This document shows positions 34,078 to 64,000 of a stretch of 64,000 bases of DNA, piece after piece. The stretch lies in the NCBI GenBank assembly GCA_045540715.1, contig JAZQHT010000014.1, positions 55,761 through 119,760 on the forward strand. Direction: 5' to 3'. The notes under the pieces were generated by a model. It made no database searches, was not told the DNA's origin, and was given only the letters and a program-made list of their open reading frames with translations. How positions within the stretch are numbered: position 1 is the first letter of the stretch; the number at the start of each line of letters is the position of its first letter. The position numbers were made by a program, and so were the translations under genes. This stretch comes from Acutalibacteraceae bacterium (GTDB taxonomy: Bacteria; Bacillota; Clostridia; Oscillospirales; Acutalibacteraceae).

Positions 34078-34162
34078 TGGTGGGAGCGGGTGGATTCGAA
34101 CCACCGAAGTCGAAGACAACAGATTTACAGTCTGCCCCCTTTGGCCACTCGGGAACACTCCC
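34078..34162 (-). tRNA. tRNA-Tyr (GTA)
   Basis: Hand-folded GGGAGTGTTCCCGAGTGGCCAAAGGGGGCAGACTGTAAATCTGTTGTCTTCGACTTCGGTGGTTCGAATCCACCCGCTCCCACCA. Long variable arm, encoded CCA. Confidence 0.9.
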
Positions 34163-34183
34163 ATATTAAGTTTAAAAAAGCAA

Positions 34184-34259
34184 TGGAGCTGGTGGACGGA
34201 CTCGAACCCCCGACCTGCTGATTACAAATCAGCTGCTCTACCAACTGAGCTACACCAGC
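34184..34259 (-). tRNA. tRNA-Thr (TGT)
   Basis: GCTGGTGTAGCTCAGTTGGTAGAGCAGCTGATTTGTAATCAGCAGGTCGGGGGTTCGAGTCCGTCCACCAGCTCCA. Cloverleaf fits, encoded CCA. Confidence 0.9.
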
Positions 34260-47296: not shown

Positions 47297-48319
47297 TTAA
47301 TTACGCTTTTTGCTAACAAACCCCAATGTTAATATAAACAAAATTTCAAATAATAGCAAAAAGCCGCTAAAAAACACAGAATATAAAAAATCTGTAAGTC
47401 CGTATATAAAAGAAAGCAAAACCAATAACGTGCAAACGATAAGCACCAATAATTTGCCACTTTTATTAAACAGTTTTTCAAAGGTGTTTTTAATAACGTA
47501 TAAGGGGGTTGCAGTTTTTATAAGAGAGCAAATAAAATAATTTAAATATGAAAAGCCTTCTAGTCTTGAAAAAATTTTGCCCGAATTTATAACGCTCATA
47601 GCGCTCATATACGGTAATTCCAAACGGCTTGATAAATCAGGCCCAAAAATTAGCAAAACGTTTAACATACAAACCATTAAAACAAAAAGTCCAAGAAAAA
47701 GTGCCACAAGCCATATTGCAAAGGTTTTTCTTAGTTTGTTTTTTCTTATTACCAAAACCAAAGGTAATGCCGATAAAAAGCTTTGCGACAAAATAATAAG
47801 AGTGCTTTTTATTGTATCTGCCATTTTAAATTCTAATGGTAAAGACAGTTTAAAATCCAGTTGCGGTAACGAAATTATAAATAATATTGTTACGCTTAAA
47901 AAAACGTATATAAAGGCAAGTAAAGATATTTTAAAAAGCACCGAATCTTTTTGAATTGCTAAATAAAAACTAAGGGCAATAAAGATAATCGATATTACCA
48001 CCCTTAGAGTATAGGGCATTCTAAAAATATTTACGTAACTAATATAATCTGAAGAAGAAACTAAAGAAATTAAAAAACAGGTTATGGTAATTATTATAAA
48101 GCAAAGGGGTTTAAACTTTATATTTTCTAAGCCGGCCGCCTTTTTATTTAAAAGAGCAAATGCAAGATATATTATTACGCTTATTGCCGCTGCTATTAAT
48201 ACACCTAAAATGCCACTTTTAATATCGCTTTGTTTAGGAAAATAAATTAGGGTGTTGCCTATTATGAAAATGGCAATTAAAAAGCTTCCTTGCAAAGCAT
48301 AATGTTTTTTTACATCCAT
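47297..48319 (-). CDS. spore germinant receptor B subunit (GerAB-type permease)
   Basis: 340 aa, 10 TM. Last gene of the gerA-type operon. Confidence 0.7.
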   Translation of the reverse strand: MDVKKHYALQGSFLIAIFIIGNTLIYFPKQSDIKSGILGVLIAAAISVIIYLAFALLNKKAAGLENIKFKPLCFIIITITCFLISLVSSSDYISYVNIFRMPYTLRVVISIIFIALSFYLAIQKDSVLFKISLLAFIYVFLSVTILFIISLPQLDFKLSLPLEFKMADTIKSTLIILSQSFLSALPLVLVIRKNKLRKTFAIWLVALFLGLFVLMVCMLNVLLIFGPDLSSRLELPYMSAMSVINSGKIFSRLEGFSYLNYFICSLIKTATPLYVIKNTFEKLFNKSGKLLVLIVCTLLVLLSFIYGLTDFLYSVFFSGFLLLFEILFILTLGFVSKKRN

Positions 48320-49368
48320 TAGTTTTCTTCCTTTATTTTTAGGCCAAAGGTAATTTCGCTGTTAATATAAATTTCTTCAAAATTATCTTTAACCATATTA
48401 TAAATTTTGGTGTCTTGCTTTTTTAAATATTCCTTAACAAAAAACAAATCAAGACCCGATTGTTTTGATATATTAATTAGTTCTTTTGCCATATATTCAA
48501 GACTTTTTTTATAATCATTGGCTTTTATATAATTATTTCTGTTTTTTAAGGTTTGCTCTAAATTTAAAGCGATTTTCAATTTGCCGTTTTTATATTCGGT
48601 TTTTATTTTGGTGTTGCTTTTTTTAATTTCTAAAAGCTGTGTTTGACCATTAATTTTAAAATTTAATTGTCCGTTTTTAAAGCTATTTGATAATACCTCA
48701 AACATAGCCGCCTTTTCGTTTAAAAGGGTTATTTTTTCTTGATCGTCTAAATATAGTTTTAACCCCTTTAAAGAATAAACCTTTTCTTCTTTTTCCCCTT
48801 CTACTTCAAAAAAGGGTAAAGCATACAAAACAGGGATTGTGTCCCTTCGGCCTCCAACGTTTATGAAGCTGTTGTTATACCCTATGCTTAAATTCTTTTG
48901 ACGAGAATTTAAAGACGACATAATTTCGTATCCTAAAACGTCTTCATTTTTAGGCTTTACAGATAATAATTCCTTTGCATCTTTTGTGGAAATTATTTTT
49001 AAAATCAAGGTAAATTCGTTATTTAAAAAACAAAACTCAAATACGCTTCTAATATCTTCTTTATTTAAATTTTCGCCAAACGCAATTACTGCACAATGCG
49101 AATAAAACAAATTTTTAGAAACGCTGCCCGAGATTTGTGCTACGGCATCTTCAAAGTCTTGACCGCTTTTGGTTATTATTTGATTTTCTGCAGTTTTTTC
49201 TTCTGTTTTGGGCTTGACAATTTCCATAGTAACAACCACTTTACCGTCTTTGTAATCAACGCCAATTGCCGAAACAATAGCGATTGATTCGATTTCCATA
49301 TAATCGGTTTTGCCGCAAGAACAAAAGCAAAATATTATTGCTATAATAAATGCTAAAATCTTTTTCAT
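48319..49368 (-). CDS. spore germinant receptor C subunit (Ger(x)C lipoprotein)
   Basis: 349 aa. Lipobox FCFCSC. Start and stop overlap its neighbours. Confidence 0.75.
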   Translation of the reverse strand: MKKILAFIIAIIFCFCSCGKTDYMEIESIAIVSAIGVDYKDGKVVVTMEIVKPKTEEKTAENQIITKSGQDFEDAVAQISGSVSKNLFYSHCAVIAFGENLNKEDIRSVFEFCFLNNEFTLILKIISTKDAKELLSVKPKNEDVLGYEIMSSLNSRQKNLSIGYNNSFINVGGRRDTIPVLYALPFFEVEGEKEEKVYSLKGLKLYLDDQEKITLLNEKAAMFEVLSNSFKNGQLNFKINGQTQLLEIKKSNTKIKTEYKNGKLKIALNLEQTLKNRNNYIKANDYKKSLEYMAKELINISKQSGLDLFFVKEYLKKQDTKIYNMVKDNFEEIYINSEITFGLKIKEEN

Positions 49369-50846
49369 TTTTTATCTCTCATCCTAGTAACGTTATGGCT
49401 TAAATCTTTGCTTCGGGTTTTAAGCCACCAAAAAGGAGCACGAATATAATCGTCTTTTAAAGAAGTAAAACTGAATTCTGCAACACTTGCAGTATAATCA
49501 ACGCCAAATGAATTCATTTTGAAAATATTAATCAAGGTAAATACAACACCCGAAAATAAACCAAAAAAGCCCAAGGTACTTGCCATTATTATAAAAAGAA
49601 TTCTCAAATAAAAAACTGCACCTTTTAGTTTTGGAATCATAAGGCCGCATATACCCGAAAGTGCTACAACAATAAGCATTGGTGCTGATACAATTTTTGC
49701 ATCTACCGCCGCTTGACCAACAACAAGGCCTCCAACTATGCTTAACGCATGTCCTAAACTTTGGGGCATACGCACCCCCGCCTCTTTTAAAATTTCAAAA
49801 ATAAATACAAGCACTATGCACTCTAAAAATGACGGAAAAGGAACCCCTGCCCTTGCCGCCGAAATTGAAATCACAAAACTTGTTGGTAAAAGGGATGGAA
49901 AAAAGTTGGTTAAGCACAAATAAAGTGCAGGCACTAAAGTACTTATTGCAAAACAAATATATCTTAAACCGCGTCCAATATTAGCCACCAAAAAGTTTAA
50001 ATAATAATCTTCATCAGACTGAAAATTTTCTTGAAATAAATACGGCAAGGTAATTACTACGGGTGTGCCATCAACAATTAAAGCCACGCGGCCTTCAAGC
50101 AGTCTTGCCGCTACAATATCGGGTCTTTCGGTTGTGCCTGAAGATTTAAAAAGGCTATATCTATTATCTTTAATTAGCTCGTTAATATAGTTACTGTCTA
50201 ATACCCCGTCAATATCAATCTTTTTAAGTCTTCGTTTTAATGTATCTAATACGTCTTTTTTAACTAAAGAATCTAAATAGCATATAAAAACCTTAGTATC
50301 AGTTCTTCGTCCTAAATAGGTTATCTCACAGCGTAAATCAGGGGTGGGCAGTTTTCTTCTAAGCATTACGAAGTTAAGCATTGCCGTTTCATCAAAGCCT
50401 TCTCTTGGCCCTTGCAAAATGCGTTCGTCGTTGGGCTCGTTTATTCCCCTTGTTCTAAAACCTTTAGTGTTTACCACCAAACAATCGTCGTCTAAAAGTA
50501 TTACAGTATCGCCGTATAAAACACCACGTACCATATCTAAAACAAGGTTGGTCTTTTTAATTTCGCCGGCAAAAATAACACTTTTAATTAAATAATCGGA
50601 GGCTCGTTTGTTTTGTGGTTTTTCGCATAAAAGCAGAGGCCTTATAACACACTCGCCAAGCACCTCGTTGCTTATCATACTATCAGAAAAAAGCACCGCC
50701 GCATTAAAGCCGTTGCACTCGAGTTCTCTGTATCTTAAAACGTCATCGTTTAAAAACATCTCTTTAAAATATAAAAGTTTTTCTTGCACCGTTCCACTTA
50801 GGGTCTCCCCCTTTAAATTTGCAATATCATTAAGCATATCTTTCAC
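49365..50846 (-). CDS. spore germinant receptor A subunit (GerA family)
   Basis: 493 aa. Soluble N-terminal domain plus C-terminal TM bundle, typical of the GerA family. Confidence 0.8.
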   Translation of the reverse strand: MKDMLNDIANLKGETLSGTVQEKLLYFKEMFLNDDVLRYRELECNGFNAAVLFSDSMISNEVLGECVIRPLLLCEKPQNKRASDYLIKSVIFAGEIKKTNLVLDMVRGVLYGDTVILLDDDCLVVNTKGFRTRGINEPNDERILQGPREGFDETAMLNFVMLRRKLPTPDLRCEITYLGRRTDTKVFICYLDSLVKKDVLDTLKRRLKKIDIDGVLDSNYINELIKDNRYSLFKSSGTTERPDIVAARLLEGRVALIVDGTPVVITLPYLFQENFQSDEDYYLNFLVANIGRGLRYICFAISTLVPALYLCLTNFFPSLLPTSFVISISAARAGVPFPSFLECIVLVFIFEILKEAGVRMPQSLGHALSIVGGLVVGQAAVDAKIVSAPMLIVVALSGICGLMIPKLKGAVFYLRILFIIMASTLGFFGLFSGVVFTLINIFKMNSFGVDYTASVAEFSFTSLKDDYIRAPFWWLKTRSKDLSHNVTRMRDKK

Positions 50847-50884: not shown

Positions 50885-50922
50885 AACAAAAAAGCAAGTA
50901 GCGTGTGCTACTTGCTTTTTTG
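50885..50922 (-). terminator. intrinsic terminator ending T-box operon 1
   Basis: aagcaagtag-cgtgtg-ctacttgctt stem flanked by A- and T-runs. Confidence 0.8.
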
Positions 50923-50956
50923 TAATTGTTTTATGCTTTTTGTAAACTTTTTAAAG

Positions 50957-51769
50957 CTATTCTTTTATGCCAAAAAGTTTTTTGGCGTTTTCTCCTAAGA
51001 TTTTGCGGAAAGCTATTTCTGAAAGGTTTAAAGACATAAAGTAATCAATCTCTTCTTTTGGGTTCCACATTGGGTAATCAGTACCAAAAAGAACGCGGTC
51101 TTCACCATAAGCATTTATAAGTTCTAATGCCTTTTGCTTATCTTTAATAAAAGGAAAGCTTGAAGAACAGTCAACGTAAAAATTATTGTGCTTTGGTAAA
51201 ACCTTAATTGCTTCATCCCAAATTGAATAGCCGCCAAAGTGTGCGCCAATAACCTGCAAATCGGTATATGTTTCTAAAATAGGTATTAGGCGATTGGGGT
51301 TTGAATAATCGTAACGCTTATCGCCTGTGTGAAGCAAAAGAACAAGCCCCTCTTTTTCCATAAGCTCGTAAATTTTTAAGCATCTGTAATCGTCTAATTT
51401 AAAGGCCTGAATATCGGGATGAAGCTTAACGCCCTTAAGTCCTAGTTCTTTTAAATGAGCAATATCGCCTTTTATATCTTCGCTTTCAGGGTGAAGTGTG
51501 CCAAGTCCCAACATTTTACCGTTAGATTCTGCCACTTCACGGGCAATAAATTCGTTTATGCTTTTAACTTGTTTTGGGGTTGTTGCAACAGACTGCACTA
51601 TCATAAAATCTATGCCGGCTTTTTCGGCTTCGGTGTGCAAATCAGATACCGTTCCCTTGCAAGCAAACACCTGATTATAAAAGGTGCTTGTGCCCATAAC
51701 CGCCCTTTCGGCAATTTTTTCGGGGTAAATGTGGCAATGGGCATCTATAACAAAATAATCTTTAACCAT
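50957..51769 (-). CDS. amidohydrolase-2 (COG2159-type TIM-barrel metal-dependent hydrolase/decarboxylase) family protein
   Basis: 270 aa. VIDAHCHIYPEKIA HxH motif. Confidence 0.7.
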   Translation of the reverse strand: MVKDYFVIDAHCHIYPEKIAERAVMGTSTFYNQVFACKGTVSDLHTEAEKAGIDFMIVQSVATTPKQVKSINEFIAREVAESNGKMLGLGTLHPESEDIKGDIAHLKELGLKGVKLHPDIQAFKLDDYRCLKIYELMEKEGLVLLLHTGDKRYDYSNPNRLIPILETYTDLQVIGAHFGGYSIWDEAIKVLPKHNNFYVDCSSSFPFIKDKQKALELINAYGEDRVLFGTDYPMWNPKEEIDYFMSLNLSEIAFRKILGENAKKLFGIKE

Positions 51770-51771
51770 TT

Positions 51772-54267
51772 TTAATCCTTACAATATTTCTTTTGGGCGT
51801 CTTCACGCATTTTATATTTTAAAATTTTACCCGCCGCGTTCATAGGAAATGCATCAACAAAATCGATATATTTTGGCACCTTATGACGAGCCATATTAGC
51901 CGCAATATATTCCTTCATTTCTTGTTCGGTCATGGTTTCGCCTTTCTTTAAGATAACACAAGCGCAAATTTCTTCGCCATATTGCTTATCGGGTACGCCG
52001 ATAACCTGAACGTCGGAAACTTTATTGTTGGTATAAATAAATTCTTCAATTTCTTTGGGGTAAATATTTTCGCCACCGCGAATAATCATATCTTTTAAGC
52101 GGCCTGTAATTAGATATGTGCCGTCAGGTCTTCTGGCTGCTAGGTCGCCTGTATGAAGCCAACCGTCTTCATCTATTGCTTCGCTTGTGGCATCGGGCAT
52201 TTTATAATAACCCTTCATAATGTTATAACCACGTGCAACAAATTCGCCGTTTTCCATATCTTTACAGTCTTCGCCGGTTTCGGGGTTAATAACCTTGCAC
52301 TCAACGTTAGCAAAAGCAGAACCAACCGTTTCTGTTCTAACCTCTAAAGAATCTGTAAATGAACTCATTGTGCAACCGGGACTTGCTTCTGTTTGCCCAT
52401 AAACCGAAACAATTTGTTTCATATTCATAACTTCGGTGGCTTTTTTCATAAGTTCAGCCGGGCAGTTAGCACCTGCCATAATACCCGTTCTGATATAAGA
52501 AAAGTCGGTCTTTTCAAAATCAGGGTGTTGCATCATTGCAATAAACATTGTTGGAACACCGTTAAAGCAGGTAATATGCTCGTTATGAACGCAAGAAAGT
52601 GCAGGGCCCGGTGAAAAATACGGTAGTGGGTACATAGTAGCGCCGTGTGTCATAGATGCGGTCATAGAAAGCACCATACCAAAGCAGTGGAACATTGGAA
52701 CTTGAATCATCATCCTATCTGCCGTTGATAAATCCATATGGTCGCCAATATATTTACCGTTATTAACAACGTTATAATGTGTTAACATAACACCTTTAGG
52801 AAAACCGGTAGTACCTGAAGTGTATTGCATATTGCATACGTCGTTTGGTTTTACAAGGGCGGCTAAACGAAGCACCTCTTCACGAGGAACTTGATTCGAC
52901 ATATTAACAGCTTCATCCCAAGTCATACAACCCTTTTGTTTAAAGCCACAGGTAATAACGTTGCGTAAAAAGGGCAAACGTTTTGAGTGTAATTTTGCGG
53001 TGGGTTTTTTATTTTCAAGCTCGGGACAAAGTTCAGCAATGATTTTACCGTAATGGGTATCTTTTGAGCCCTCTGTCATAATTAGTGTGTGAGTATCTGA
53101 CTGACGAAGCAAATATTCGGCTTCGTGAATTTTATAGGCGGTATTAACAGTAACTAAAACCGCGCCAATTTTTGTTGTTGCCCAAAAAGCAATATACCAT
53201 TGTGGAACGTTTGAGGCCCAAACCGCAACGTGAGAACCAGGGCGAACACCCATTGCAATTAAAGCGCGGGCAAATTCGTCAACGTCGTCTCTAAATTCGC
53301 TGTAAGTACGGGTATAATCTAAGGTTGTGTATTTAAAACAGTATTGGTCGGGGAATTCTTCAACCATTTTATCTAATACACCCGAGAAGGTGTAATCAAT
53401 AAGCAAGTCTTTTTTCCAAATAAACTTACCTGTTCTATCGGTATTATAATAAAGTGTTTTTTCGGCAGCTTTTGTATCTGCAAACTGCTTCATATAGTTT
53501 AAAAATTGCGAATAGATAATCTCCATATCGTCAATTTCTGCACACCAGGTTGGGTCCCAAATTAATGAAATAAAGCCGTCGTAATTTACAGAACGCAAAG
53601 CGCTCATCATATCGGAAATAGGAATATTGCCTTCTCCTGCTAAACATCTTTCAATTTCGCCGTCCACCATTTTTGCATCGTAAAAATGAACGTGCTTAAC
53701 GTAAGCACCCAAATTTTTAATAACAATTTTTGGTTCTTCTTTGCCATATAAATAAGCAGTGGCAAAATTCCAAAGGGCTCCTAAATTGTCAGAAGCAAAG
53801 GTGCCTAATACCTCGCAAAGTTTTGCGGTTAAGCTATAAAGCCCTGCTGTTTCAATAAGTAGTGTAATATTTGTTTCTTCGGCAATTGGTAGTGCTTTTT
53901 CAATAAAGCTAATTACGTTTTTATTAGCGTTTTCAAAATCGCTACTATCTTCTGCACGCAAACGAATATAAGGAATTTTTAAGTTCTTTGCAATTTCAAT
54001 GCAAGAAGCTGTTTCTTCTAATGCAACATCTACGTTTTTTGCAATATCTGCAACCACGTCAATACAAGCAAGTGTTAATTTTTGTTCATATAGTTTTCTA
54101 ACGGTTTTAGCGGCGGTATAATCGTGAAAAGCCCCGTCTTTATCGGTAAAGAGGCGGTTTTTTATATTATGAAGTTCAATGCCGTCAAACTTTAAATCTT
54201 TAGCAATAGCACAAAATTCTTCAAAATTATTGTTGTGCCAACCCTTTGTCGAAAAGGAAAATTTCAT
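51772..54267 (-). CDS. fusion protein: xylose-isomerase-like TIM barrel (sugar phosphate isomerase/epimerase family) + AMP-forming acyl-CoA ligase
   Basis: 831 aa. The N-terminal roughly 270 aa (MKFSFSTKGWHNNNFEEF...GIELHN...) is AP_endonuc_2-like. The C-terminal part carries MQYTSGTTGFPKGV, WLHTGDLA and GRLKDMIIRGGENIYPKEIEE. Confidence 0.75.
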   Translation of the reverse strand: MKFSFSTKGWHNNNFEEFCAIAKDLKFDGIELHNIKNRLFTDKDGAFHDYTAAKTVRKLYEQKLTLACIDVVADIAKNVDVALEETASCIEIAKNLKIPYIRLRAEDSSDFENANKNVISFIEKALPIAEETNITLLIETAGLYSLTAKLCEVLGTFASDNLGALWNFATAYLYGKEEPKIVIKNLGAYVKHVHFYDAKMVDGEIERCLAGEGNIPISDMMSALRSVNYDGFISLIWDPTWCAEIDDMEIIYSQFLNYMKQFADTKAAEKTLYYNTDRTGKFIWKKDLLIDYTFSGVLDKMVEEFPDQYCFKYTTLDYTRTYSEFRDDVDEFARALIAMGVRPGSHVAVWASNVPQWYIAFWATTKIGAVLVTVNTAYKIHEAEYLLRQSDTHTLIMTEGSKDTHYGKIIAELCPELENKKPTAKLHSKRLPFLRNVITCGFKQKGCMTWDEAVNMSNQVPREEVLRLAALVKPNDVCNMQYTSGTTGFPKGVMLTHYNVVNNGKYIGDHMDLSTADRMMIQVPMFHCFGMVLSMTASMTHGATMYPLPYFSPGPALSCVHNEHITCFNGVPTMFIAMMQHPDFEKTDFSYIRTGIMAGANCPAELMKKATEVMNMKQIVSVYGQTEASPGCTMSSFTDSLEVRTETVGSAFANVECKVINPETGEDCKDMENGEFVARGYNIMKGYYKMPDATSEAIDEDGWLHTGDLAARRPDGTYLITGRLKDMIIRGGENIYPKEIEEFIYTNNKVSDVQVIGVPDKQYGEEICACVILKKGETMTEQEMKEYIAANMARHKVPKYIDFVDAFPMNAAGKILKYKMREDAQKKYCKD

Positions 54268-54270
54268 TTA

Positions 54271-55641
54271 TTACGCCTCCTCGTAAACAATCTTGTTAAC
54301 AGCGCTAATATATGCGCGAATACCTGCTCCTAAAATATCGGTTGAAATACCTTGACCGGAATATAATTTTCCGTCTTTGCGAAGCTTAATAATAGCAGAG
54401 CCCATTGCTCCTTTACCTTCTGTAACTGCTTGAATTTGAAAATCGTCAAGCTCGTAGTGTGTGCCCAAAATTTTGTCAATAGCTTTAAATGCGGCGTCAA
54501 TAGGACCGTCGCCAATTTCAACAGCCGAAATATCTTCACCGTTTTTATTTAAAGTAATTTGTGCAGAAGAAGAAATAATGTTACCGCTATTAATAATAAA
54601 GTTAACTAATTTATAAGTAGAAGGAACTTGAAGTGCAACAGAAGCGATAATGGCTTCTAATTCTTTTGAGCCAACCGTTTTCTTTTCTGCGGTGCGCTTA
54701 AATTCTTCATAAACTTTAGCGTTATCTTCTTCGGTTAAGTCATAACCTAAAAGCATAACTGCTTTTTTAACGGCGGCTTCATCGTCTTTTTCGTCCAAAC
54801 GAATAACGTTGTCTTCTTGTGATATATTGCTACCGTTTACTCCGCCTTTATTATCTGTAACCCAGTTAATTTGATTAATAATTCTGCTTAACTGTGTATA
54901 TTTAATGTTACTGCTATAACCATTACGGTTACCGCTGTTTTTAACCATTTCCGAGAAGGTATATAAATCGGGGGCTGAACCTTTAACACAGGTTTTAACG
55001 CTATCAGCACCACTCATTACTGCCATAATGCTTTTTGCAATAGAAAGGCCATTTTTATCTTCGCAATAAACACCAACAGAAATATTGGTTTCGGCTTTAA
55101 TTTCTTTAATAAACGCAGCAAATTCGTCGGGCATCATTTCTGCAAAATTGTCACAGATTGTTACGCTTGTAGCCCCCGCATTTTCTGCAGTTTTTATTGC
55201 ATTAATTAAAAAGGCTTTGTCGGCTCTTGTGGCATCCATTGCAAAAAATTCAACGTCTAAAACCTTTTCTTTTGCTGCGGCAATTACCTTTTCAATAACC
55301 GAAAGCATTTTATCAGGTTTTTTGTGGCAGGTATATTCCATACCAACAGTAGATACAGGAAGTGCCACCTTTATTCTTTTATTTTTTGCTGTTACTAGTG
55401 CTTCTGCCGCTTTTTCTACGGTATCAACACTTGTTGCAGTAACACTAATGGTAGTGTTTTTTACAAAAGAACAAATTGTTTTAATGCATAAAATATCAAT
55501 TCGATCATTTTCAATTTCGGGTAATTCTAATATATCAACATTAAGCATGCTCAGTTTTCTGGCAATCTCTAATCTTTCTTTAAAAGAAAATGCGTTTTCT
55601 TTAAAGGTTAGTGTTGCATCACATAGTTTAATGTTTTTCAT
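54271..55641 (-). CDS. LeuA (2-isopropylmalate/homocitrate synthase)-like protein with degenerate active site and an intact C-terminal LeuA regulatory domain
   Basis: CDATLTFKEN replaces DTTLRDGEQ, and VYCEDKNGL replaces HxHNDlG. The C-terminus GDGPIDAAFKAI...GKGAMGSAIIKL...GQGISTDILGAGIRAYISAVNK is LeuA_dimer-like. ATG 55641 follows SD AAGGAGAAA. Confidence 0.7.
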   Translation of the reverse strand: MKNIKLCDATLTFKENAFSFKERLEIARKLSMLNVDILELPEIENDRIDILCIKTICSFVKNTTISVTATSVDTVEKAAEALVTAKNKRIKVALPVSTVGMEYTCHKKPDKMLSVIEKVIAAAKEKVLDVEFFAMDATRADKAFLINAIKTAENAGATSVTICDNFAEMMPDEFAAFIKEIKAETNISVGVYCEDKNGLSIAKSIMAVMSGADSVKTCVKGSAPDLYTFSEMVKNSGNRNGYSSNIKYTQLSRIINQINWVTDNKGGVNGSNISQEDNVIRLDEKDDEAAVKKAVMLLGYDLTEEDNAKVYEEFKRTAEKKTVGSKELEAIIASVALQVPSTYKLVNFIINSGNIISSSAQITLNKNGEDISAVEIGDGPIDAAFKAIDKILGTHYELDDFQIQAVTEGKGAMGSAIIKLRKDGKLYSGQGISTDILGAGIRAYISAVNKIVYEEA

Positions 55642-55663
55642 AATTTTTCTCCTTAAAATAAAA

Positions 55664-55940
55664 TAAAAAAGCCCCTGAAACCACAAAATATGGTTTCAGG
55701 GACGAAAAATCTTTTCGCGGTACCACCCTGATTACCGTTAAAAATAACGGTCACTCTGCGGTGTTCTAACAAACACCCTGCCATGATAACGGGGCAAGCC
55801 GTAGCCACTTACTGTTATTTCAGCGACTCTGCTCCGGAACGAGACTTTCATTTAATTAGGTATTGGCTCACACCGGCCGCCAACTCTCTGAAACTCTAGC
55901 TTTAAACGAAATAATTCCTTCATTGCATTTATTAAATTAT
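55664..55940 (-). promoter_or_regulatory. T-box riboswitch leader 1 (hand-assigned specifier CUC = Leu)
   Basis: Minus strand elements: K-turn UGC-AAU-GA.../...GGA-GCA; AG bulge plus distal loop AGAGAGUUGGCGGCCGGUGUGAGCCAA; specifier loop GAAAGU-CUC-G next to helix GGAA/UUCC (CUC = 55841..55843); T-box AAUCAGGGUGGUACCGCG (55716..55733); terminator CCCCUGAAACCA...UGGUUUCAGGGG + U-run (55664..55702). Confidence 0.85.
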
Positions 55941-55945
55941 AAAAA

Positions 55946-55974
55946 ATTTTAACACCAAAAATTCCGTTTGTCAA
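55946..55974 (-). promoter_or_regulatory. sigma-A promoter of T-box operon 1
   Basis: Minus strand: TTGACA, 17 nt, TAAAAT. Confidence 0.7.
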
Positions 55975-55991
55975 TACTAAATTAAATATTT

Positions 55992-56333
55992 TTATTCTTC
56001 TGGTATATAAAGCTCCATATCTACAGCTTTGCCATCTTCAATTGTGATTTTCCAATAATCATTAAAATCGCCAAACATATCATAATAGGGATAAATAACA
56101 TACCCTTCTTCTAATTCGTTGGCTGGCAAGTTTGGTTCTTTTGCTTTGGGTTCTCCAAATTTTTCTTCAAGTTCTACTGCAGACTTACCTATTACGTTTT
56201 TCTCCAATAAATCTCCAGAATCATCAAAAATGTGCATACCCAAAGTAACAATACTCGCAATTAAAACTAAGCCTAAAACTATAAATAATGCAATTATGAT
56301 TGTTTTTGATTTAGTTTGTTTTTTATCTTGCAT
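55992..56333 (-). CDS. small membrane-anchored hypothetical protein
   Basis: 113 aa. N-terminal TM, acidic C-terminal domain. Confidence 0.5.
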   Translation of the reverse strand: MQDKKQTKSKTIIIALFIVLGLVLIASIVTLGMHIFDDSGDLLEKNVIGKSAVELEEKFGEPKAKEPNLPANELEEGYVIYPYYDMFGDFNDYWKITIEDGKAVDMELYIPEE

Positions 56334-56499: not shown

Positions 56500-57561
56500 T
56501 TATAGTTCTTGTATCCAACCGAATTTATCTTCGATTTTGCCCCATTGAATACCTGTTAGAGTATCGTATAGGTGTTGGGTTGTCTCACCGATTTCACCGT
56601 TATTAACAGGGTATTTTTTGCCTTTATAGCAAAGTTCACCAATTGGAGAAACAACAGCGGCTGTGCCGCAGCCCCAAGCTTCTTTAAGTGTGCCGTTTTC
56701 TAAAGCAGCAGCTAATTCATCAATACTTAAAAGGCGTTCGCTAACCTTATAGCCCTCTTGCTTTAATACTTCAATACAAGACATTCTTGTAATGCCCGGT
56801 AAAATTGAACCCGAAAGCATAGGAGTTACAATTTCATCGCCAATTTTGAACATAACGTTCATAGCGCCTACTTCTTCAATATACTTTCTTTCAACGCCGT
56901 CTAGCCATAAAACCTGGCTATAACCAAGCTTAGCTGCTCTTTCACCTGCGCGGTTACTTGCGGCATAGTTACCACCGCATTTTGCATAACCTGTACCGCC
57001 GCGAACTGCACGAACGTCTTCATCTTCAATCATAATTTTAACGGGGTTAATGCCTTCTTTATAATAACTGCCAACAGGAGAGGCAATAATCATATAGGTT
57101 GCATTATCAACCGCGTGAACGCCTAAAGATTCGTCGTTACCAAATAAAAATGGTCTTAAGTAAAGGCTTGTGCCTTCTGCAGAAGGGGTCCAATCTTGTT
57201 CGTGTTTAACAAAGGTGGTTAGCACTTCCATTGCTAAGTCTTCAGGAATTTGCGGAAGACATAAACGCTCTGCTGAACGGTTTAATCTTCTAATATTTTC
57301 GATTGGGCGGAAAAGTTGAACAACTCCGTCTTTTCTTCTATATGCTTTTAGCCCTTCAAAAATTTCAGAACCATAATGAAGTACGGTTGAAGCCGGGTGA
57401 ATTGGAAAAGGTCCAAAAGGAACTATTCTTGCGTTATGCCAACCATCTTTTTTATTATAGTTCATAATAAACATATTGTCGGTAAAGATTTTACCAAAAC
57501 CCAAAGTGCTGCTATCGGGTTTTTCTTTTAAATTGTTATTTTCAAAAATTTTAATTTCCAT
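56500..57561 (-). CDS. ilvE: branched-chain amino acid aminotransferase (class IV, long form)
   Basis: 353 aa. ...HYGSEIFEGLKAYR..., EEVGAMNVMF and LPGITR blocks. Confidence 0.9.
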   Translation of the reverse strand: MEIKIFENNNLKEKPDSSTLGFGKIFTDNMFIMNYNKKDGWHNARIVPFGPFPIHPASTVLHYGSEIFEGLKAYRRKDGVVQLFRPIENIRRLNRSAERLCLPQIPEDLAMEVLTTFVKHEQDWTPSAEGTSLYLRPFLFGNDESLGVHAVDNATYMIIASPVGSYYKEGINPVKIMIEDEDVRAVRGGTGYAKCGGNYAASNRAGERAAKLGYSQVLWLDGVERKYIEEVGAMNVMFKIGDEIVTPMLSGSILPGITRMSCIEVLKQEGYKVSERLLSIDELAAALENGTLKEAWGCGTAAVVSPIGELCYKGKKYPVNNGEIGETTQHLYDTLTGIQWGKIEDKFGWIQEL

Positions 57562-57567
57562 AACAAA

Positions 57568-58101
57568 TTACTCCTTTGCACCTAAAGCCAATGCTTTACG
57601 GTTAAAGTCTAACATATTTGCTTTTTTAGCAGGAATTACCTTTGCAAGTGTTTTTTCAATACCTTCTTCGGTATATTCGTTAACCACTGCTAAAAGTTTA
57701 CCCATAATAATCATATTTGCAAGACCTTTTAAGCCGTTATCGTCGGCTAGTTTGGTTGCGTTTACGTAATAAACTGTAACGTCGGTTCTGTTTACTTTTC
57801 TTTCAATAAGTGTGCTATCGCAAATAATTATGCCGCCCGACTTTACTGTGGGCTCAAACTTATCTAAAGAAGGTAAATTCATTGCAACTAAAATATCGGG
57901 GTTGGAAACGATGGGGCTACCAACTGCTTCATCTGAAACAATAACACTGCAAGAAGCAGTACCGCCACGCATTTCGGGGCCGTAAGAAGGAAGCCAAGAA
58001 ACGTTTTTGTCTTCAATTAAACCTTTATATGCTAAAAATTTACCTGCAAATAAAATACCTTGACCGCCAAAACCCGAAAGTAAAATATTTTTTGTGTTCA
58101 T
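57568..58101 (-). CDS. 2-oxoacid:ferredoxin oxidoreductase gamma subunit
   Basis: 177 aa. LSGFGGQGILFAGKFLA. Confidence 0.85.
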   Translation of the reverse strand: MNTKNILLSGFGGQGILFAGKFLAYKGLIEDKNVSWLPSYGPEMRGGTASCSVIVSDEAVGSPIVSNPDILVAMNLPSLDKFEPTVKSGGIIICDSTLIERKVNRTDVTVYYVNATKLADDNGLKGLANMIIMGKLLAVVNEYTEEGIEKTLAKVIPAKKANMLDFNRKALALGAKE

Positions 58102-58102
58102 A

Positions 58103-58858
58103 TTATTTTACCTCGCTTTCTGCACTGCGATCTTTATAACAACCAAGTGGGTAATATGGAATCATTTTTTCGTCAATCCATTTTAGTGCATCAGATGGGC
58201 TCATACCCCAGTTGGTTGGGCAAGAAGAAACAACTTCTACTAAAGAAAAGCCCTTGCCGTCAATTTGGTTTTGAAATGCCTTTTTAATGGCTTTTTTAGC
58301 ATTTCTGATATTTTTAACGTTGTTAACTGTAACACGCTCTAAATATTCAGGTCCGTCAAGTTCTGATAACATTTCGCAAACCTTAATTGGAAAACCGCAA
58401 TGATTTGTATCACGGCCATAGGGAGAGGTTTGTGTTACTTGACCGGGTAATGAGGTTGGAGCCATTTGGCCGCCTGTCATACCATAAATTGCGTTGTTAA
58501 TAAAAATAATTGTAATGTTTTCGTTACGAGCAGCCGAATGAACGGTTTCTGCCATACCGATAGATGCTAAGTCGCCATCGCCTTGATATGTAAATACAAT
58601 GTGGTTTTCGGGGTCAGCACGTTTAACACCTGTTGCAACTGCAGGAGCACGACCGTGAGCGGCTTCAATCATATCGCAATTAAAATAGTTATAAGCCATA
58701 ACAGAGCAACCAACAGGTGCAATACCTATTGTTTTGCCTTCAATGCCAAGCTCGTCAATAACTTCTGCAACAAGGCGGTGAACAATACCGTGTGTGCAAC
58801 CTGGGCAATAGTGCATTGGAACGTCTGTTAATGCGTGGGGTTTATCAAATACTACCAT
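58103..58858 (-). CDS. 2-oxoacid:ferredoxin oxidoreductase beta (TPP-binding) subunit
   Basis: HYCPGCTHG and GDGDLASIG. ATG 58858 overlaps the alpha stop (TAATG), with SD AAGGAG 10 nt upstream. Confidence 0.9.
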   Translation of the reverse strand: MVVFDKPHALTDVPMHYCPGCTHGIVHRLVAEVIDELGIEGKTIGIAPVGCSVMAYNYFNCDMIEAAHGRAPAVATGVKRADPENHIVFTYQGDGDLASIGMAETVHSAARNENITIIFINNAIYGMTGGQMAPTSLPGQVTQTSPYGRDTNHCGFPIKVCEMLSELDGPEYLERVTVNNVKNIRNAKKAIKKAFQNQIDGKGFSLVEVVSSCPTNWGMSPSDALKWIDEKMIPYYPLGCYKDRSAESEVK

Positions 58859-59922
58859 TATTTTGCACACTCCTTATTTACAGCAATAATTTTTTCTAAT
58901 ACTTCTTCGGGGCTAACTATCATACCGCCTGTACGGTTACATAAATATACGGGTTTTTGACAGTTGGTTGCAAGTTTTACGTCGTCAATCATTTGACCCA
59001 TTGAAAGTTCAACAGAAATATATGCTTTTGCATTTTTAACTGTTTTAGTAAATGGGGCAACAGGGAAAGGCCAAAGTGTAATTGGACGAATAAGACCTGC
59101 TTTAATACCCATTTTTCTTGCTTCGTTAATAGCATTTTTAGAAACACGAGAAGCAATACCAAAAGCAACTAAAACAATATCAGCGTCTTCTGTTAAATAT
59201 TCTTCGTAAAGGGCTTCGGTTTCTTCAATTTTCTTATATCTTTCAAAACGCTCAAAGTTGGTTTTTTCTAACTCATCAGGAGAAAGGAATAAAGAGTTAA
59301 CAATATTATGTTCTCTTTCCATTTTAGTTCCTGTGGTTGCCCAAGGTTTATCTACCTTTTCGCCTTCGCAGAAATCTAAAGAAACAGGTTCCATCATTTG
59401 ACCCATTGTACCATCTGCTAAAATCATACTGGTCATTCTGTATTTATCGGCAAGTTCAAAACCTTTAACGGTAAGCTCTGCCATTTCTTGAACAGAGGCC
59501 GGAGCAAGAACAATCATTCTAAAGTCGCCGTGTCCGCCTGCTTTTGTTGCTTGATAATAATCGCTTTGAGATGGTTGAATACCACCTAGTCCCGGACCAC
59601 CACGTTGAACGTTAACAACTAATGCAGGTAAATCTGCACCTGCTAAATAAGAAAGGCCTTCGCTTTTTAATGCAACACCCGGACTTGAAGAAGAGGTCAT
59701 AACTCTTTTACCGGTGCTACTTACGCCGTAAACCATATTAATAGCGGCAATTTCGCTTTCTGCTTGTAAAAAACAACCGCCAATTTTGGGCATCTTTTTT
59801 GCCATATAAGCGGCAATTTCGGTTTGTGGTGTGATTGGGTAACCAAAGTAATGGCGGCAACCTGCAAGAATTGCGGCTTCTGCTATTGCTTCATTTCCCT
59901 TCATTAAAACTTTATCTGCCAT
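58858..59922 (-). CDS. 2-oxoacid:ferredoxin oxidoreductase alpha subunit
   Basis: 354 aa. MKGNEAIAEAAILAGC... Confidence 0.9.
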   Translation of the reverse strand: MADKVLMKGNEAIAEAAILAGCRHYFGYPITPQTEIAAYMAKKMPKIGGCFLQAESEIAAINMVYGVSSTGKRVMTSSSSPGVALKSEGLSYLAGADLPALVVNVQRGGPGLGGIQPSQSDYYQATKAGGHGDFRMIVLAPASVQEMAELTVKGFELADKYRMTSMILADGTMGQMMEPVSLDFCEGEKVDKPWATTGTKMEREHNIVNSLFLSPDELEKTNFERFERYKKIEETEALYEEYLTEDADIVLVAFGIASRVSKNAINEARKMGIKAGLIRPITLWPFPVAPFTKTVKNAKAYISVELSMGQMIDDVKLATNCQKPVYLCNRTGGMIVSPEEVLEKIIAVNKECAK

Positions 59923-59929: not shown

Positions 59930-60136
59930 CTACCTTTCTACCTTAATAATGCAGTCGGGACACATCATTGCGCAAGCTGCACAGCCAACACAAGCGGCCT
60001 CGTCGGTAATTTCTGCGGGGTGGTGTCCTTTTTTGTTGATTTTGTCCATTGCAAGTTTAATTAAACCTTTAGGACAAGCCTCAACACAAAGGGCGCAACC
60101 TTTACATTTGTCGGTTTTAAACGTTAATTTTGCCAT
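59930..60136 (-). CDS. 2-oxoacid:ferredoxin oxidoreductase delta subunit (2x[4Fe-4S] ferredoxin)
   Basis: 68 aa. CKGCALCVEACP and CVGCAACAMMCP. Confidence 0.9.
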   Translation of the reverse strand: MAKLTFKTDKCKGCALCVEACPKGLIKLAMDKINKKGHHPAEITDEAACVGCAACAMMCPDCIIKVER

Positions 60137-60158: not shown

Positions 60159-60821
60159 TTATATAACTGTTTTTTGTAACTTTAACGGAACAAGATTTTC
60201 TATTTTTTCTTTTAGTTCGTCATAAAGTTCTTCTTTAACTGTTGTAAAGGCAATTTTTAAGCCGGTTTTTTCTGACAGCTCTTTTGCAATTTCTACACTG
60301 CTTAAAAGGTCTTCTTTTGTGGTTTCTTTACCCAAATTAGAATTATTAATAAGCCCTGTAAAGCGCATTTTAGAAGCAATTTCAATTTCGTTTAATACTT
60401 CTATTAAACTTTCAGTATCTCTTGTAAGCGGTCTAAAAGTATTAATTACAAACAACATTTCGTAATCGTTTTCTTGCTTTAGCGCTTCACTTAAACGCCC
60501 AATAGCAAGTGCTCCTCTATCGTCGCCGCCAACGTCTATAATTGCTTTCAAGGTTTTATCGTGAATTAAACTATAAACGTCGCTTGGCATTGAGGGTATA
60601 TCAACGTTACTGTTAGCATATTCTGAACAAATAAGCCTAATGCCGTCTTTTTTGAAAATTTCTTCGCTGTCTTTGGTTCTAAAATATGGGTTAACTATAT
60701 CCAGGTCGGCAATTGCTACGTTATCGTACTGTTTTTTCAGATCGTACGCCAAGTTTACAGCGATATTGGTTTTGCCGCTGCCATAGTGCCCCATAATAAG
60801 TGTAATTCTTTTATATTTCAT
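60159..60821 (-). CDS. P-loop NTPase (SIMIBI-class, MinD/CooC/G3E-like), function unknown
   Basis: 220 aa. Walker A GHYGSGKT, and DVGGDD, a possible Walker B/switch. 2-nt gap to the upstream gene. Confidence 0.6.
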   Translation of the reverse strand: MKYKRITLIMGHYGSGKTNIAVNLAYDLKKQYDNVAIADLDIVNPYFRTKDSEEIFKKDGIRLICSEYANSNVDIPSMPSDVYSLIHDKTLKAIIDVGGDDRGALAIGRLSEALKQENDYEMLFVINTFRPLTRDTESLIEVLNEIEIASKMRFTGLINNSNLGKETTKEDLLSSVEIAKELSEKTGLKIAFTTVKEELYDELKEKIENLVPLKLQKTVI

Positions 60822-60823: not shown

Positions 60824-63112
60824 TTATAACAGATTTCTTTGAATTTTGCCGCTTACAGTTTTTGGTAAGCTCTCTTTAAATTCAACAATTCTAGGATATT
60901 TATAAGGTGCGGTTTTTTCTTTAACGTAGGTTTGAATTTCTTTTTTAAGTTCATCGGTGCCTGCTGTTCCTTTAACTAGAACAACACTCGCTTTAACAAT
61001 TTGTCCGCGAACTTCATCGGGAACTGCAGAAACACCGCATTCAAGTACGTAAGGAAGTTCCATAATAACGCTTTCAATTTCAAATGGGCCAATGCGGTAG
61101 CCTGAAGACTTAATAACGTCGTCAACGCGGCCAACGTACCAATAAAATCCGTCTTCATCGCGCCAAGCGGTATCGCCTGTGTGATAATAGCCGTCGTGCC
61201 AAACTTCGTCGGTCTTTTCTTTGTCGTTATAATAACCGGTAAATAATCCCGGTGGAACACCCTCTTTAAGGTTAATTACAATTTCGCCGGCTTCACCAGA
61301 AGGTGTTGGGTTACCATCTGCATCCATAAGTTCAACGTTATAAATTGGAGCAGATTTACCCATAGAGCCAATTTTATGACTAGCGCCTACCATATTACCA
61401 ATAATCATGGTGCTTTCGGTTTGACCAAAGCCCTCGATAATTTGAAGTCCCGTTGCTTTTTCAAATTGACGGTAAACTTCGGGGTTTAGCGCTTCACCCG
61501 CGGTTGTCATATGCTTAACAGATGAAAAATCGTAATTATTAATATCTTGCTTAACCATCATTCTAAGCATTGTTGGAGGTGCACAGAAGGTGGTTATTTT
61601 ATATTTAGAGAACATTGGTAAAATATCGGCCGCATCAAAACGGTCAAAGTCGTAAACAAAGATTGCGCCTTCGCATAACCATTGTCCGTACATTTTACCC
61701 CACATTGCTTTTGCCCAACCTGTATCTGAAATGGTAAAGTGAAGACCATTTGGATCAACGTTGTGCCAATATCTTGCAGTGTGGAAATGTCCTAATGGGT
61801 ATTTATAGTTATGAACTGCAATTTTGGGATAGCCGCTTGTCCCCGAAGTAAAATACATAAGCATTGTATCTTCGCCACAAGGTGCATCTTTAGTTCTATT
61901 ATAGTGGGTTGAATATAAGGTATATTCTTCGTCAAAGTTACGCCAACCGTCTCTTTGTTTACCAACTATAATTTTATTAATCATACCATCGTAATTTTTT
62001 AGTGCTTCATCAACCTTATCGGCAGCACCGTCTTCACTGGTACAAATAATTGAGGTAATACCTGCTGAACGAAAACGATATTCATAATCGTGTTCTTTAA
62101 GTTGGCTTGTTGCAGGAATTGCAATAGCGCCTAGTTTATTAAGGCCTAACATACTAAACCAGAACTGATAGTGACGTTTAAGTACAAGTAAAACTCTGTC
62201 GCCTTTCTTTATACCTAAAGATTTAAAATAGTTAGCGCATTGGTTAGATGCCTTTTTCATATCTTTAAAGGTAAAACGACGTTCTTGCTTATCTTTAGAA
62301 ACGTGTAACATTGCAAGTTTATTAGGCTCTTTTGAAGCCATTTCGTCAATAAGGTCAAATGCAAAGTTAAATTTATCGGTGTTCTTAAACTCAATTTTTG
62401 TGGGAGTACCGTTTTCGTTTTCTTCCGTATCAATAAACTTACGATAAATTCTTTCTTCGGTATCTTTTAAACCTTTTGTATTTAAAGGCACTGCCTTTAC
62501 GGGTGTAAGTTCTGGAATTGGTTCGCCCGTTGGGTTTAAAACAATAGCATAGAAAATACAATCCTTACCGCCTGTTGCAATCATACCGTGAGGTGTATCA
62601 CTATCGAAATAAATGCTATCTCCGGGTCCTAAAATTTCTCTATGCTCGCCAATTTGAACAAGCAAGTTACCTTCAACAACAATATCGCACTCCTGACCTT
62701 CGTGGGTGGTTAGTTCAATATCTCTGTTTTCGGCAGTTTCGTCGTAAATGCTTCTAACGTAAAGGGGCTCTGCAATACGGTTTTGAAAAGAATAAGCTAG
62801 GTTAAAATATGTCATACCGTGTGCTTGAGCAATTTTTTGACCCTGTCCGTTTTTAGTAACGGTATAGCTTTTAAGTTTTGGGCTATAACCTTCGATAATA
62901 TCGGTTACGTTAACGCTTAATGCTAAGGCACAACGATAAATAAAGGCAAAGTTAAGATCACTCTTACCCTCTTCACAAAGCAAATATTCATCTACCGTAA
63001 CGCCTGTTTTTGCCGCCATTTCAGTTGGGGTAAGACCTTCAATTTCGCGAAGCTCTTTAATACGGCCGGCCATTTCCTTAATTTTAAAATCAAGTCCTGT
63101 AATTTGTTCCAT
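60824..63112 (-). CDS. three-domain fusion: XRE-type HTH + cupin + AMP-forming (medium-chain type) acyl-CoA synthetase
   Basis: 762 aa. HTH GLTPTEMAAKTGVTVDEYLLCEEGKSDL; cupin HEGQECDIVVEGNLLVQIGEHREILGPGDSIYFDSDTPHGM; synthetase [49 protein letters not shown] and PKTVSGKIQR. Confidence 0.8.
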   Translation of the reverse strand: MEQITGLDFKIKEMAGRIKELREIEGLTPTEMAAKTGVTVDEYLLCEEGKSDLNFAFIYRCALALSVNVTDIIEGYSPKLKSYTVTKNGQGQKIAQAHGMTYFNLAYSFQNRIAEPLYVRSIYDETAENRDIELTTHEGQECDIVVEGNLLVQIGEHREILGPGDSIYFDSDTPHGMIATGGKDCIFYAIVLNPTGEPIPELTPVKAVPLNTKGLKDTEERIYRKFIDTEENENGTPTKIEFKNTDKFNFAFDLIDEMASKEPNKLAMLHVSKDKQERRFTFKDMKKASNQCANYFKSLGIKKGDRVLLVLKRHYQFWFSMLGLNKLGAIAIPATSQLKEHDYEYRFRSAGITSIICTSEDGAADKVDEALKNYDGMINKIIVGKQRDGWRNFDEEYTLYSTHYNRTKDAPCGEDTMLMYFTSGTSGYPKIAVHNYKYPLGHFHTARYWHNVDPNGLHFTISDTGWAKAMWGKMYGQWLCEGAIFVYDFDRFDAADILPMFSKYKITTFCAPPTMLRMMVKQDINNYDFSSVKHMTTAGEALNPEVYRQFEKATGLQIIEGFGQTESTMIIGNMVGASHKIGSMGKSAPIYNVELMDADGNPTPSGEAGEIVINLKEGVPPGLFTGYYNDKEKTDEVWHDGYYHTGDTAWRDEDGFYWYVGRVDDVIKSSGYRIGPFEIESVIMELPYVLECGVSAVPDEVRGQIVKASVVLVKGTAGTDELKKEIQTYVKEKTAPYKYPRIVEFKESLPKTVSGKIQRNLL

Positions 63113-63143: not shown

Positions 63144-63417
63144 TAAAAAAACTCGTCCCAAAGTTATTGCTTTGAGACGAGTGTGAATATTTCATACCCG
63201 CGGTACCACTCAAATTGCAAGAATAATCTTGCCACTCTCGGAATCTAACAATTCCTATGTCTTAACGCGACAACACGGGAAGATTCTACTAAAGATAAAC
63301 TTGTTCTTTCTTCCGGCTTAGAAGCTACAACATAAATTTTTCACCATTGGCTTGCACCCACCGCCAACTCTCTAAAGGTTACTAATAAATATGCCCTCTT
63401 CGTCAAAGCTTTTAACG
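63144..63417 (-). promoter_or_regulatory. T-box riboswitch leader 2 (specifier tentatively UUU = Phe)
   Basis: Minus strand elements: S-turn AGUA; AG bulge plus distal loop AGAGAGUUGGCGGUGGGUGCAAGCCAA (63345..63374); specifier loop GAAAAA-UUU-A (UUU = 63334..63336); T-box UUUGAGUGGUACCGCGGG (63197..63216); terminator CUCGUCUC...GGGACGAG + U7 (63144..63181). Confidence 0.8.
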
Positions 63418-63506: not shown

Positions 63507-64000
63507 TTATAATTTATTTCTTTGGATTTTGCCGCTAATAGTTTTAGGTAATTCATCCTTAAATACCACAATTCTTGGGTATTTATAAGGAGCAGTGTGG
63601 CTTTTAACGTAGTCTTGAATTTCTTTTTTAAGTGCATCTGTGCCTTCTGTTCCCTTGGTTAAAACAATGCTTGCTTTAACAACCTGACCGCGAATTTCAT
63701 CGGGAGCGGCAGATACACCGCACTCTACAACGTAAGGAAGTTCCATAATAACGCTTTCAATTTCAAATGGGCCAATGCGGTATCCAGAAGATTTGATAAC
63801 GTCGTCAATACGGCTAACGTACCAGAAATATCCGTCTTCATCGCGCCAAGCGGTATCGCCTGTGTGATACATATTATCATAAACGGCATCGTCGGTTTTT
63901 TCTTTATCTAGATAATATTCTTTAAACAATCCGCAAGGAACACCATCTTTAAGTCTAACAACGATTTCGCCAACTTCACCAGTGGCCACCGGTTTGCCCT
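63507..64000 (-). CDS. AMP-forming acyl-CoA synthetase paralog, C-terminal part only (N-terminus beyond the right edge)
   Basis: The frame stays open to the window end (..[14 protein letters not shown]..). [38 protein letters not shown] and [10 protein letters not shown]. Very similar to the C-terminus of 60824..63112. Confidence 0.85.

Follow-up and report, generated by a model that had tools for sequence, protein, structure and literature searches.

Since the 1960s it has been known that fibre-degrading bacteria of the rumen and gut depend on, or at least use, isovalerate, isobutyrate and 2-methylbutyrate as precursors of leucine, valine and isoleucine, and these "isoacids" are still sold as feed additives. 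In labelling experiments, ruminococci incorporated isovalerate into leucine and isobutyrate into valine (Allison 1962, 1966, 1971, cited in PMC7356843), and such labelling is what defined the rumen isovalerate carboxylation pathway. The locus described here, whose gene content matches the steps and the ecology of the pathway (acid-CoA ligases, a VorB-type oxidoreductase and a branched-chain aminotransferase (BCAT), in rumen and gut Oscillospirales hosts), centers on a three-gene operon behind a leucine-type T-box leader in a 64,000-nucleotide (nt) stretch of DNA, the window, from an Acutalibacteraceae bacterium (GenBank assembly GCA_045540715.1, contig JAZQHT010000014.1, positions 55,761 to 119,760 of the forward strand). 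Coordinates are counted from the first letter of the window, and all window features named below lie on its minus strand. We lean, if only slightly, towards the interpretation that leucine starvation would induce isovalerate activation, with reductive carboxylation and transamination to leucine to follow.

T-boxes typically control the supply of their cognate amino acid, and the Bacillus subtilis ilv-leu and leuS leaders carry a CUC specifier. The leader in the window resembles these leucine T-boxes of Firmicutes in belonging to RF00230, in its CUC codon and UGGU bulge and in its terminator/antiterminator logic; however, their usual targets are leuABCD, leuS or a transporter, whereas here they are an apparently dead LeuA homologue, a fusion of a TIM barrel to an acyl-CoA ligase, and an amidohydrolase. 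The LeuA_dimer allosteric domain is the part of the 2-isopropylmalate synthase LeuA that binds leucine. With LeuA of Mycobacterium tuberculosis (PDB 1SR9, 3FIG) the product of the first gene has in common a DRE-TIM barrel, a linker and a LeuA_dimer domain, but the catalytic and metal motifs of LeuA, its longer linker and its equivalog-level scores are all absent. The regulatory logic that we propose for this protein is like that of IlvN/IlvH, the small regulatory ACT-domain subunits of acetohydroxyacid synthase, in which a separate end-product-binding polypeptide stands beside the catalytic subunit and mediates feedback inhibition; the putative sensor here is instead a whole LeuA-derived pseudoenzyme, and its target would be an ANL ligase. 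The last relevant system is MbcS, the methylbutyryl-CoA synthetase of Staphylococcus aureus, an ATP-dependent ligase for exogenous short branched-chain acids and the best NCBIfam match of ligases in the neighborhood of our operon; the purified enzyme activates 2-methylbutyrate and isobutyrate, and isovalerate poorly, it serves lipid priming, and it is not reported to be T-box-controlled (PMC10026030). The fusion ligase, by contrast, is under a leucine T-box and belongs to a PRK12583-like ANL subfamily with an extra N-terminal domain that MbcS does not have.

The leader is preceded by a sigma-70-type promoter, TTGACA-17-TAAAAT with a TG extension (55946..55974), which at 11/12 is the only match of its quality in a region whose total of promoter-like sites is no higher than in shuffled sequence. 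The Rfam covariance model RF00230 matches 55932..55695 over its full length (model positions 1-219) with 134.2 bits, as compared to a gathering score of 93 (E=1.2e-29), and the leader so delimited (55695..55932) comprises stem I with its K-turn, specifier loop and distal loop, stem II/III, and the T-box sequence and antiterminator. The 5' side of stem I contains AAAUGCAAUGAAGGAAUU and the 3' side reads GAAAGU-CUC-G-UUCC-GGAGCA. Both the sequence and the covariance-model alignment place the specifier codon CUC (Leu) at 55841..55843; the purine G 55840 comes next, then the helix strand UUCC (55839..55836) and then GGAGC (55835..55831), and CUCG falls on the codon-plus-purine positions of the model. 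The 4-bp helix GGAA/UUCC stands above a GA-type K-turn, with GGAA coming after the K-turn UGA. Within the T-box sequence AGGGUGGUACCGCG (55716..55729), an invariant motif in related leaders, the UGGU bulge (55725..55722) is expected to base-pair with the 3'-terminal ACCA of a tRNA, the discriminator being A as in tRNA-Leu. The leader ends in a terminator (55661..55703) whose hairpin (55703..55671; 15 pairs, 7 of them GC) is followed by TTTTTTATTT and overlaps the 3' half of the antiterminator. These features support a class-I transcription-attenuating T-box riboswitch specific for tRNA-Leu, with readthrough predicted on uncharged tRNA-Leu; the leader RNA itself is in no way unusual for its well-known family.

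Comparison with other genomes strengthens this assignment. Relatives of the fusion were found in at least 594 species-level genomes (one genome was taken per species), and we analyzed the best 80 of these loci, all of them in metagenome-assembled genomes; the hosts of these 80 are uncultured Acutalibacteraceae, Oscillospiraceae or other Clostridia, mostly from the guts of ruminants and other animals. A T-box precedes the LeuA-like gene in 57 of the 71 loci with at least approximately 150 nt of upstream DNA, and of the specifiers 55 are CUC and one is the synonymous leucine codon CUG, while the remaining one, in a truncated leader, cannot be read. Covariation is seen in the helix that flanks the codon (GGAA/UUCC, GAAA/UUUC, GGAG/CUCC, GAUG/CAUC, GAUA/UAUC) and in the terminator stem, and RNAalifold analysis of 49 orthologous leaders supports 31 of the 46 consensus pairs by compensatory changes. 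RNAalifold also paired the invariant CUC with the GAG of the K-turn; we set this pairing aside as an artifact, there being no variation at those positions and a conflict with the covariance model. An initial annotation of the window had predicted a full T-box leader with the promoter, K-turn, T-box and terminator given above, a CUC specifier and a bulge pointing to discriminator A, and had proposed an alignment of orthologous leaders as a check on the codon. Its prediction stands in each of these respects: the codon is upheld, and elsewhere too the genes that follow are kept together behind a T-box.

The operon begins with the LeuA-like gene (54271..55641; 456 amino acids (aa); HMGL-like and LeuA_dimer), which starts at an ATG behind an AGGAG site, and its three genes, separated by 3 nt and 2 nt, run up to a strong terminator at 50886..50923, as had been annotated. 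Against the NCBIfam LeuA equivalogs the LeuA-like protein scores 265.6 bits at best, less than half of cut-offs that are all 532 or more. In an alignment to solved isopropylmalate synthases, the canonical LRDGEQ is replaced by LTFKEN, EDATR by MDATR, PDTVG by CDNFA and HCHxD by YCEDK, such that the DRE-TIM catalytic signature (the Arg and Asp of LRDGxQ, the Glu of EDATR and the Thr of DTVG) is broken and the HxH metal ligands are gone. The former active-site positions vary freely within the family. Conservation in the family is highest in the LeuA_dimer domain (PF08502, 110.8 bits, profile positions 4-130 of 131), which has a nearly invariant GDGPxDA and an equally constant ELDDFQIQ...TEG...G...STDI block. 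The fold is nonetheless that of LeuA: in the AlphaFold model (predicted local distance difference test (pLDDT) score of 84) the barrel is complete and superimposes on the Listeria isopropylmalate synthase barrel 3EWB with a TM-score of 0.91 (normalized to the target) at 1.8 Å, and Foldseek ranks structures of full-length M. tuberculosis LeuA highest, among them the leucine-bound 3FIG, although the linker is approximately 40 residues shorter than in LeuA. The regulatory domain alone, used as a query in a PDB sequence search, found nothing. Because the active site has drifted while the C-terminal domain is near-invariant, we read the protein as a pseudoenzyme that appears to be kept for its ligand-binding and dimerization domain, with a barrel that its motifs mark as catalytically dead, in agreement with the initial description of a dead LeuA-like protein with a retained regulatory domain. 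The HMGL-like family also includes the carboxyltransferase domains of pyruvate carboxylase, and we considered such an activity for the barrel and rejected it, the metal and DRE residues being missing.

The second gene (51772..54267) encodes the 831-aa fusion (AP_endonuc_2, AMP-binding and AMP-binding_C), and the annotated pairing of a TIM barrel with an ANL ligase is thus borne out by its domain matches. The ANL acyl-CoA ligase domain (approximately aa 290-831; 51772..53400; PF00501, 307 bits, and PF13193, 63 bits) contains the core motifs YTSGTTGFPKGV, YGQTE, GWLHTGD and GRLKDMIIRGGENIYP, and no other part of the operon is as conserved; among fusion relatives the commonest residue at a position has on average a frequency of 0.86 in this domain, as compared to 0.62 in the barrel. 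The barrel (approximately aa 1-270; 53458..54267) is of the xylose-isomerase-like type, with a Pfam match at aa 20-235 (PF01261, 75.4 bits versus a threshold of 31.1), and its AlphaFold2 model (pLDDT 92) has Foldseek TM-scores of 0.75-0.82 to IolI, Art22, AsbF and ketose 3-epimerases, matches that narrow its function no further. Alignment to MJ1311 and SCO6571 assigns the metal positions of the window's barrel to E139, N167, H194 and I236, which departs from the canonical E-D-H-E tetrad. Because N167 and I236 stand where the ancestor of the family has the metal ligands D and E, this barrel is probably not a standard metalloenzyme. The polar residues E31, D70, R102, H192, D197 and E212 are still conserved. 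In the window's clade as a whole, N167 is accompanied by V or I at position 236 (codons at ~53767-53769 and ~53560-53562 in the window), and this joint loss in one clade of two ligands (D to N, E to V or I) that the rest of the family keeps suggests that the domain is being relaxed or is changing its function. A homologue search with the TIM domain yielded for the most part this fusion in truncated form, and no informative names. On some metagenomic contigs the fusion is split, with barrel and ligase encoded by separate adjoining genes and the LeuA-like gene still in first place.

The third gene (50957..51769) encodes a 270-aa member of the Amidohydro_2 (COG2159-type) family of metal-dependent hydrolases and decarboxylases (PF04909, 123.5 bits versus a threshold of 26.4). 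Its HxH...H...D ligands are intact; DAHCH, LHTGD, GAHFGG and GTDYP are conserved in its family, and the nearest solved structure, 3IRS, is that of a protein without assigned function. Among its homologues we found only the names "amidohydrolase" and "TIM-barrel metal-dependent hydrolase", in the same gene context, and an exact-sequence cluster look-up gave no protein names. We considered the possibility that the protein is a reversible carboxylase and found no support for it.

These genes recur in the same arrangement in dozens of species-level genomes, which is beyond chance. In every one of the 78 loci (of 80) that have enough upstream DNA, the fusion is immediately preceded by the LeuA-like gene, with a gap of 3 nt in the window and of approximately 6-35 nt in most related loci, and translational coupling of the two genes is plausible because the gap is short. 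The amidohydrolase gene is downstream of the fusion in only 52 of 80 loci. Of the trio proposed in the initial annotation, LeuA-like protein and fusion thus form the conserved core, to which the amidohydrolase is accessory.

The adjoining genes offer a clue to function. Directly upstream of the leucine T-box operon, on the same strand, lies an operon with a T-box leader of its own (RF00230, 106 bits; 63170..63415), whose specifier is GUA (Val). Its first gene (60824..63112) encodes a 762-aa HTH_19, Cupin_2 and AMP-binding ligase whose best family is MbcS (440 bits; the cut-off of 850 is missed). There follow a P-loop NTPase (60159..60821), a two-cluster ferredoxin-like delta subunit of 68 aa (59930..60136), the VorB-type alpha subunit of a 2-oxoacid:ferredoxin oxidoreductase (VOR; 58858..59922; VorB NF005507, 535 bits versus a cut-off of 399), the beta (58103..58870) and gamma (57568..58101) subunits, and a BCAT (56500..57561; NF009897, 477 bits versus a cut-off of 307). 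This operon looks like a module for the conversion of isobutyrate to valine. At its edge the window cuts off another MbcS-like ligase, of which it contains the C-terminus (63507..64000). This ligase is 77% identical to the 762-aa one and, by analogy with the related loci L054, L073 and L082, may carry an isoleucine (AUC) T-box outside the window.

The same association recurs among the relatives. MbcS-like ligases there carry AUC (Ile) or GUA (Val) T-boxes, and several loci have both, so that three ligases stand under three branched-chain specifiers (Leu, Ile, Val). The module of NTPase, VOR and BCAT adjoins the pair of LeuA-like protein and fusion in approximately 27 of 80 loci, a figure that is approximate as ORF (open reading frame) calling in GC-rich loci sometimes took antisense ORFs. 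In L053, L075, L077 and L080 the order is LeuA-like, fusion, BCAT, NTPase and VOR, with no detectable T-box, consistent with one operon; in L050 and L060 a leucine T-box is followed by the LeuA-like gene, the fusion and a PFOR-type oxidoreductase of 1193 aa; and in L038 a partial, edge-truncated T-box that reads CUC stands before NTPase, VOR, BCAT, LeuA-like protein, fusion and amidohydrolase. In gene content and regulation, a ligase, a 2-oxoacid:ferredoxin oxidoreductase and a BCAT are therefore encoded together under T-boxes for the cognate amino acid. An initial blast clustering had put both ligase types into one common family; we rejected this grouping, as direct comparison of the fusion ligase with the window's MbcS-like ligase gives only 25% identity.

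The N-terminus of the 60824..63112 product (aa 1-200) is an XRE-type helix-turn-helix (HTH) and cupin unit fused to the acyl-CoA ligase, and three of the four T-box-less operons listed above end in a protein that consists of this unit by itself (e.g., L053:9017-9577). By analogy with BirA, it could be a DNA-binding or ligand-sensing module carried on an enzyme, and on the valine and isoleucine ligases it may have a sensing role analogous to that proposed for the LeuA-like protein.

From these observations the following scheme can be drawn. On leucine starvation, uncharged tRNA-Leu would permit readthrough into the three-gene operon; the fusion ligase would activate isovalerate (3-methylbutyrate), which is abundant in the rumen and gut, to isovaleryl-CoA; the neighboring VorB-type oxidoreductase would reductively carboxylate isovaleryl-CoA to 2-oxoisocaproate; and the neighboring BCAT would convert 2-oxoisocaproate to leucine. 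The parallel MbcS-type ligases under valine (GUA) and isoleucine (AUC) T-boxes would do likewise for isobutyrate and 2-methylbutyrate. Both the substrate, isovalerate, and the anabolic direction are inferred, the latter because a T-box induces on uncharged tRNA, in which case a ligase, an oxidoreductase and an aminotransferase fit only a path from acid to amino acid. The poor use of isovalerate by MbcS would explain a separate ligase family for the leucine branch; the two ligase types are only 25% identical. The LeuA-like protein, which is always adjacent, apparently dead as an enzyme and conserved in its leucine-type allosteric domain, would for these reasons be a leucine-sensing regulatory subunit that feedback-inhibits the ligase at its ATP-consuming committed step. 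We thus propose a modular locus for isoacid assimilation, in which the operon is the module for activation on the leucine branch. The initial annotation had offered activation of an exogenous acid such as isovalerate as one possibility and had held the chemistry not to be deducible; of its suggestions this one is the best backed by genomic context, and the valine T-box operon and related loci do point to a specific chemistry, namely a carboxylation route for isovalerate. More tentatively, and with considerable doubt as to the whole, one could envision that the LeuA-like protein is the leucine-sensing subunit of an acyl-CoA ligase, that the ligases under leucine, isoleucine and valine T-boxes together with a shared VOR and BCAT are the long-missing genes behind the need of rumen and gut Oscillospirales for branched-chain volatile fatty acids and their assimilation of these acids, and that barrel and amidohydrolase add a further step.

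Several observations sit uneasily with a simple three-step isovalerate route. In the window, VOR and BCAT are under the valine T-box and not the leucine T-box, and at least 12 related loci, despite sufficient upstream DNA, lack a detectable T-box before the pair of LeuA-like protein and fusion, nor did an Rfam search at a permissive threshold find any known RNA element in front of the pair in these variants. The best family of the fusion ligase is the generic PRK12583 (648 bits versus a cut-off of 832), it reaches no equivalog cut-off, and substrate specificity in this ligase is not readable from sequence. The sensor role of the LeuA-like protein is inferred from conservation and gene order. 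The barrel is present in every case, fused or split, and the amidohydrolase is frequent, yet such a route needs neither; moreover, 38 of 69 relatives have the intact tetrad E139-D167-H194-E236, which hints at chemistry beyond our model. Finally, in one subclade (L017:6196-8491 and L084-L087, e.g., L084:7813-10032), metY-like (Cys_Met_Meta_PP) and metA-like (HTS) genes begin approximately 5 nt after the amidohydrolase gene and may be co-transcribed from the leucine T-box, which our model leaves unexplained. Because barrel and amidohydrolase are not accounted for, an alternative has to be kept in mind in which the operon carries out a new, multi-step chemistry: barrel, amidohydrolase and perhaps the LeuA-like protein would act catalytically on, or bind, a leucine-related precursor other than isovalerate, e.g., a hydroxy- or dicarboxylic acid, a lactone or a conjugate, which would be processed and CoA-activated toward 2-oxoisocaproate or leucine. 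The amidohydrolase, with its metal ligands kept, its translational coupling to the fusion, and relatives that include decarboxylases, hydratases and lactonases, would suit such a scheme. However, neither the activity of the barrel nor that of the amidohydrolase can be essential, since the window's clade has lost two of the barrel's metal ligands and 28 of 80 loci lack the amidohydrolase; the former active site of the LeuA-like protein is not conserved, and the parallel valine and isoleucine modules consist of just ligase, VOR and BCAT. We therefore consider this alternative unlikely, though it deserves serious attention.

Alternatively, the ligase could supply isovaleryl-CoA as a primer for iso-odd branched-chain fatty acids and not for leucine. 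When leucine is scarce, the usual source of primer (leucine to 2-oxoisocaproate to isovaleryl-CoA) would fail, and exogenous isovalerate would be salvaged for membrane lipids; a leucine T-box would report a lack of leucine-derived primer equally well, and MbcS, the closest characterized relative of the neighboring ligases, does this in S. aureus (PMC10026030). The ligases are nonetheless clustered, and in some genomes apparently co-transcribed, with an oxidoreductase and a BCAT, neither of which is needed for priming from an activated acid. A leucine-binding-type regulatory domain, moreover, fits feedback control of leucine synthesis, and it is typically the supply of the cognate amino acid that T-boxes control. 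On balance we regard a lipid function as improbable. We give still less weight to the possibility that the leader does not respond to tRNA-Leu at all, whether because the specifier was misassigned or because the T-box has decayed to constitutive termination or readthrough. Although the 64-kb window offers no tRNA-Leu gene for comparison, the RF00230 match is full length and well over its threshold, the codon is constant save for one synonymous change in approximately 56 leaders while adjoining positions vary, and both terminator and antiterminator covary. The T-boxes at the same loci also use this position to specify other amino acids, reading GUAG in the second T-box of the window and AUCA, AUCC or GUAG in those of related loci. 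Such a failure of the leader is accordingly very improbable, and the interpretation of the operon as a leucine-responsive isovalerate-activation module remains the one that we prefer.

A few further features of the window and of related loci were observed. An ORF of 113 aa (55992..56333) stands between the BCAT gene and the leucine operon's promoter; it has no Pfam match, is not conserved in related loci and is possibly no gene. Immediately downstream of the operon terminator is a GerA/GerC/spore-permease germination receptor operon (47297..50846), from which we conclude that the organism is a spore former. Gut-1 RNA (RF01706) scores above threshold in the window (33758..33828, 63 bits), approximately 250 nt 3', on the same strand, of a tRNA-Thr/tRNA-Tyr pair (34078..34259), and again in L072:146-222 (minus strand, 60 bits). 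A bacterial RNase P class A RNA (242 bits; L051:13235-13608, minus strand) near one related locus is incidental.

To our knowledge, leucine-sensing allosteric feedback on ANL ligases has not been described. The gene set as a whole (a LeuA-derived pseudoenzyme, a barrel-ligase fusion, and a triad of leucine, isoleucine and valine T-boxes on dedicated ligases) likewise appears undescribed: a literature search found no description of the operon and no paper that assigns genes to the isoacid activation step, its T-box control or its LeuA-like partner, and Sun 2013 holds nothing relevant to the operon. The undescribed pathway suggested by the initial annotation thus appears new as regards its genes, although the route itself is known physiologically from rumen bacteria. 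The locus is a directly testable and widespread gene set, and the leucine, isoleucine or valine T-box on each ligase provides it with a built-in label of specificity, by which isoacid users would become predictable from metagenomes. In addition, LeuA provides here a clear example of a biosynthetic enzyme converted into a pseudoenzyme that is probably a sensor.

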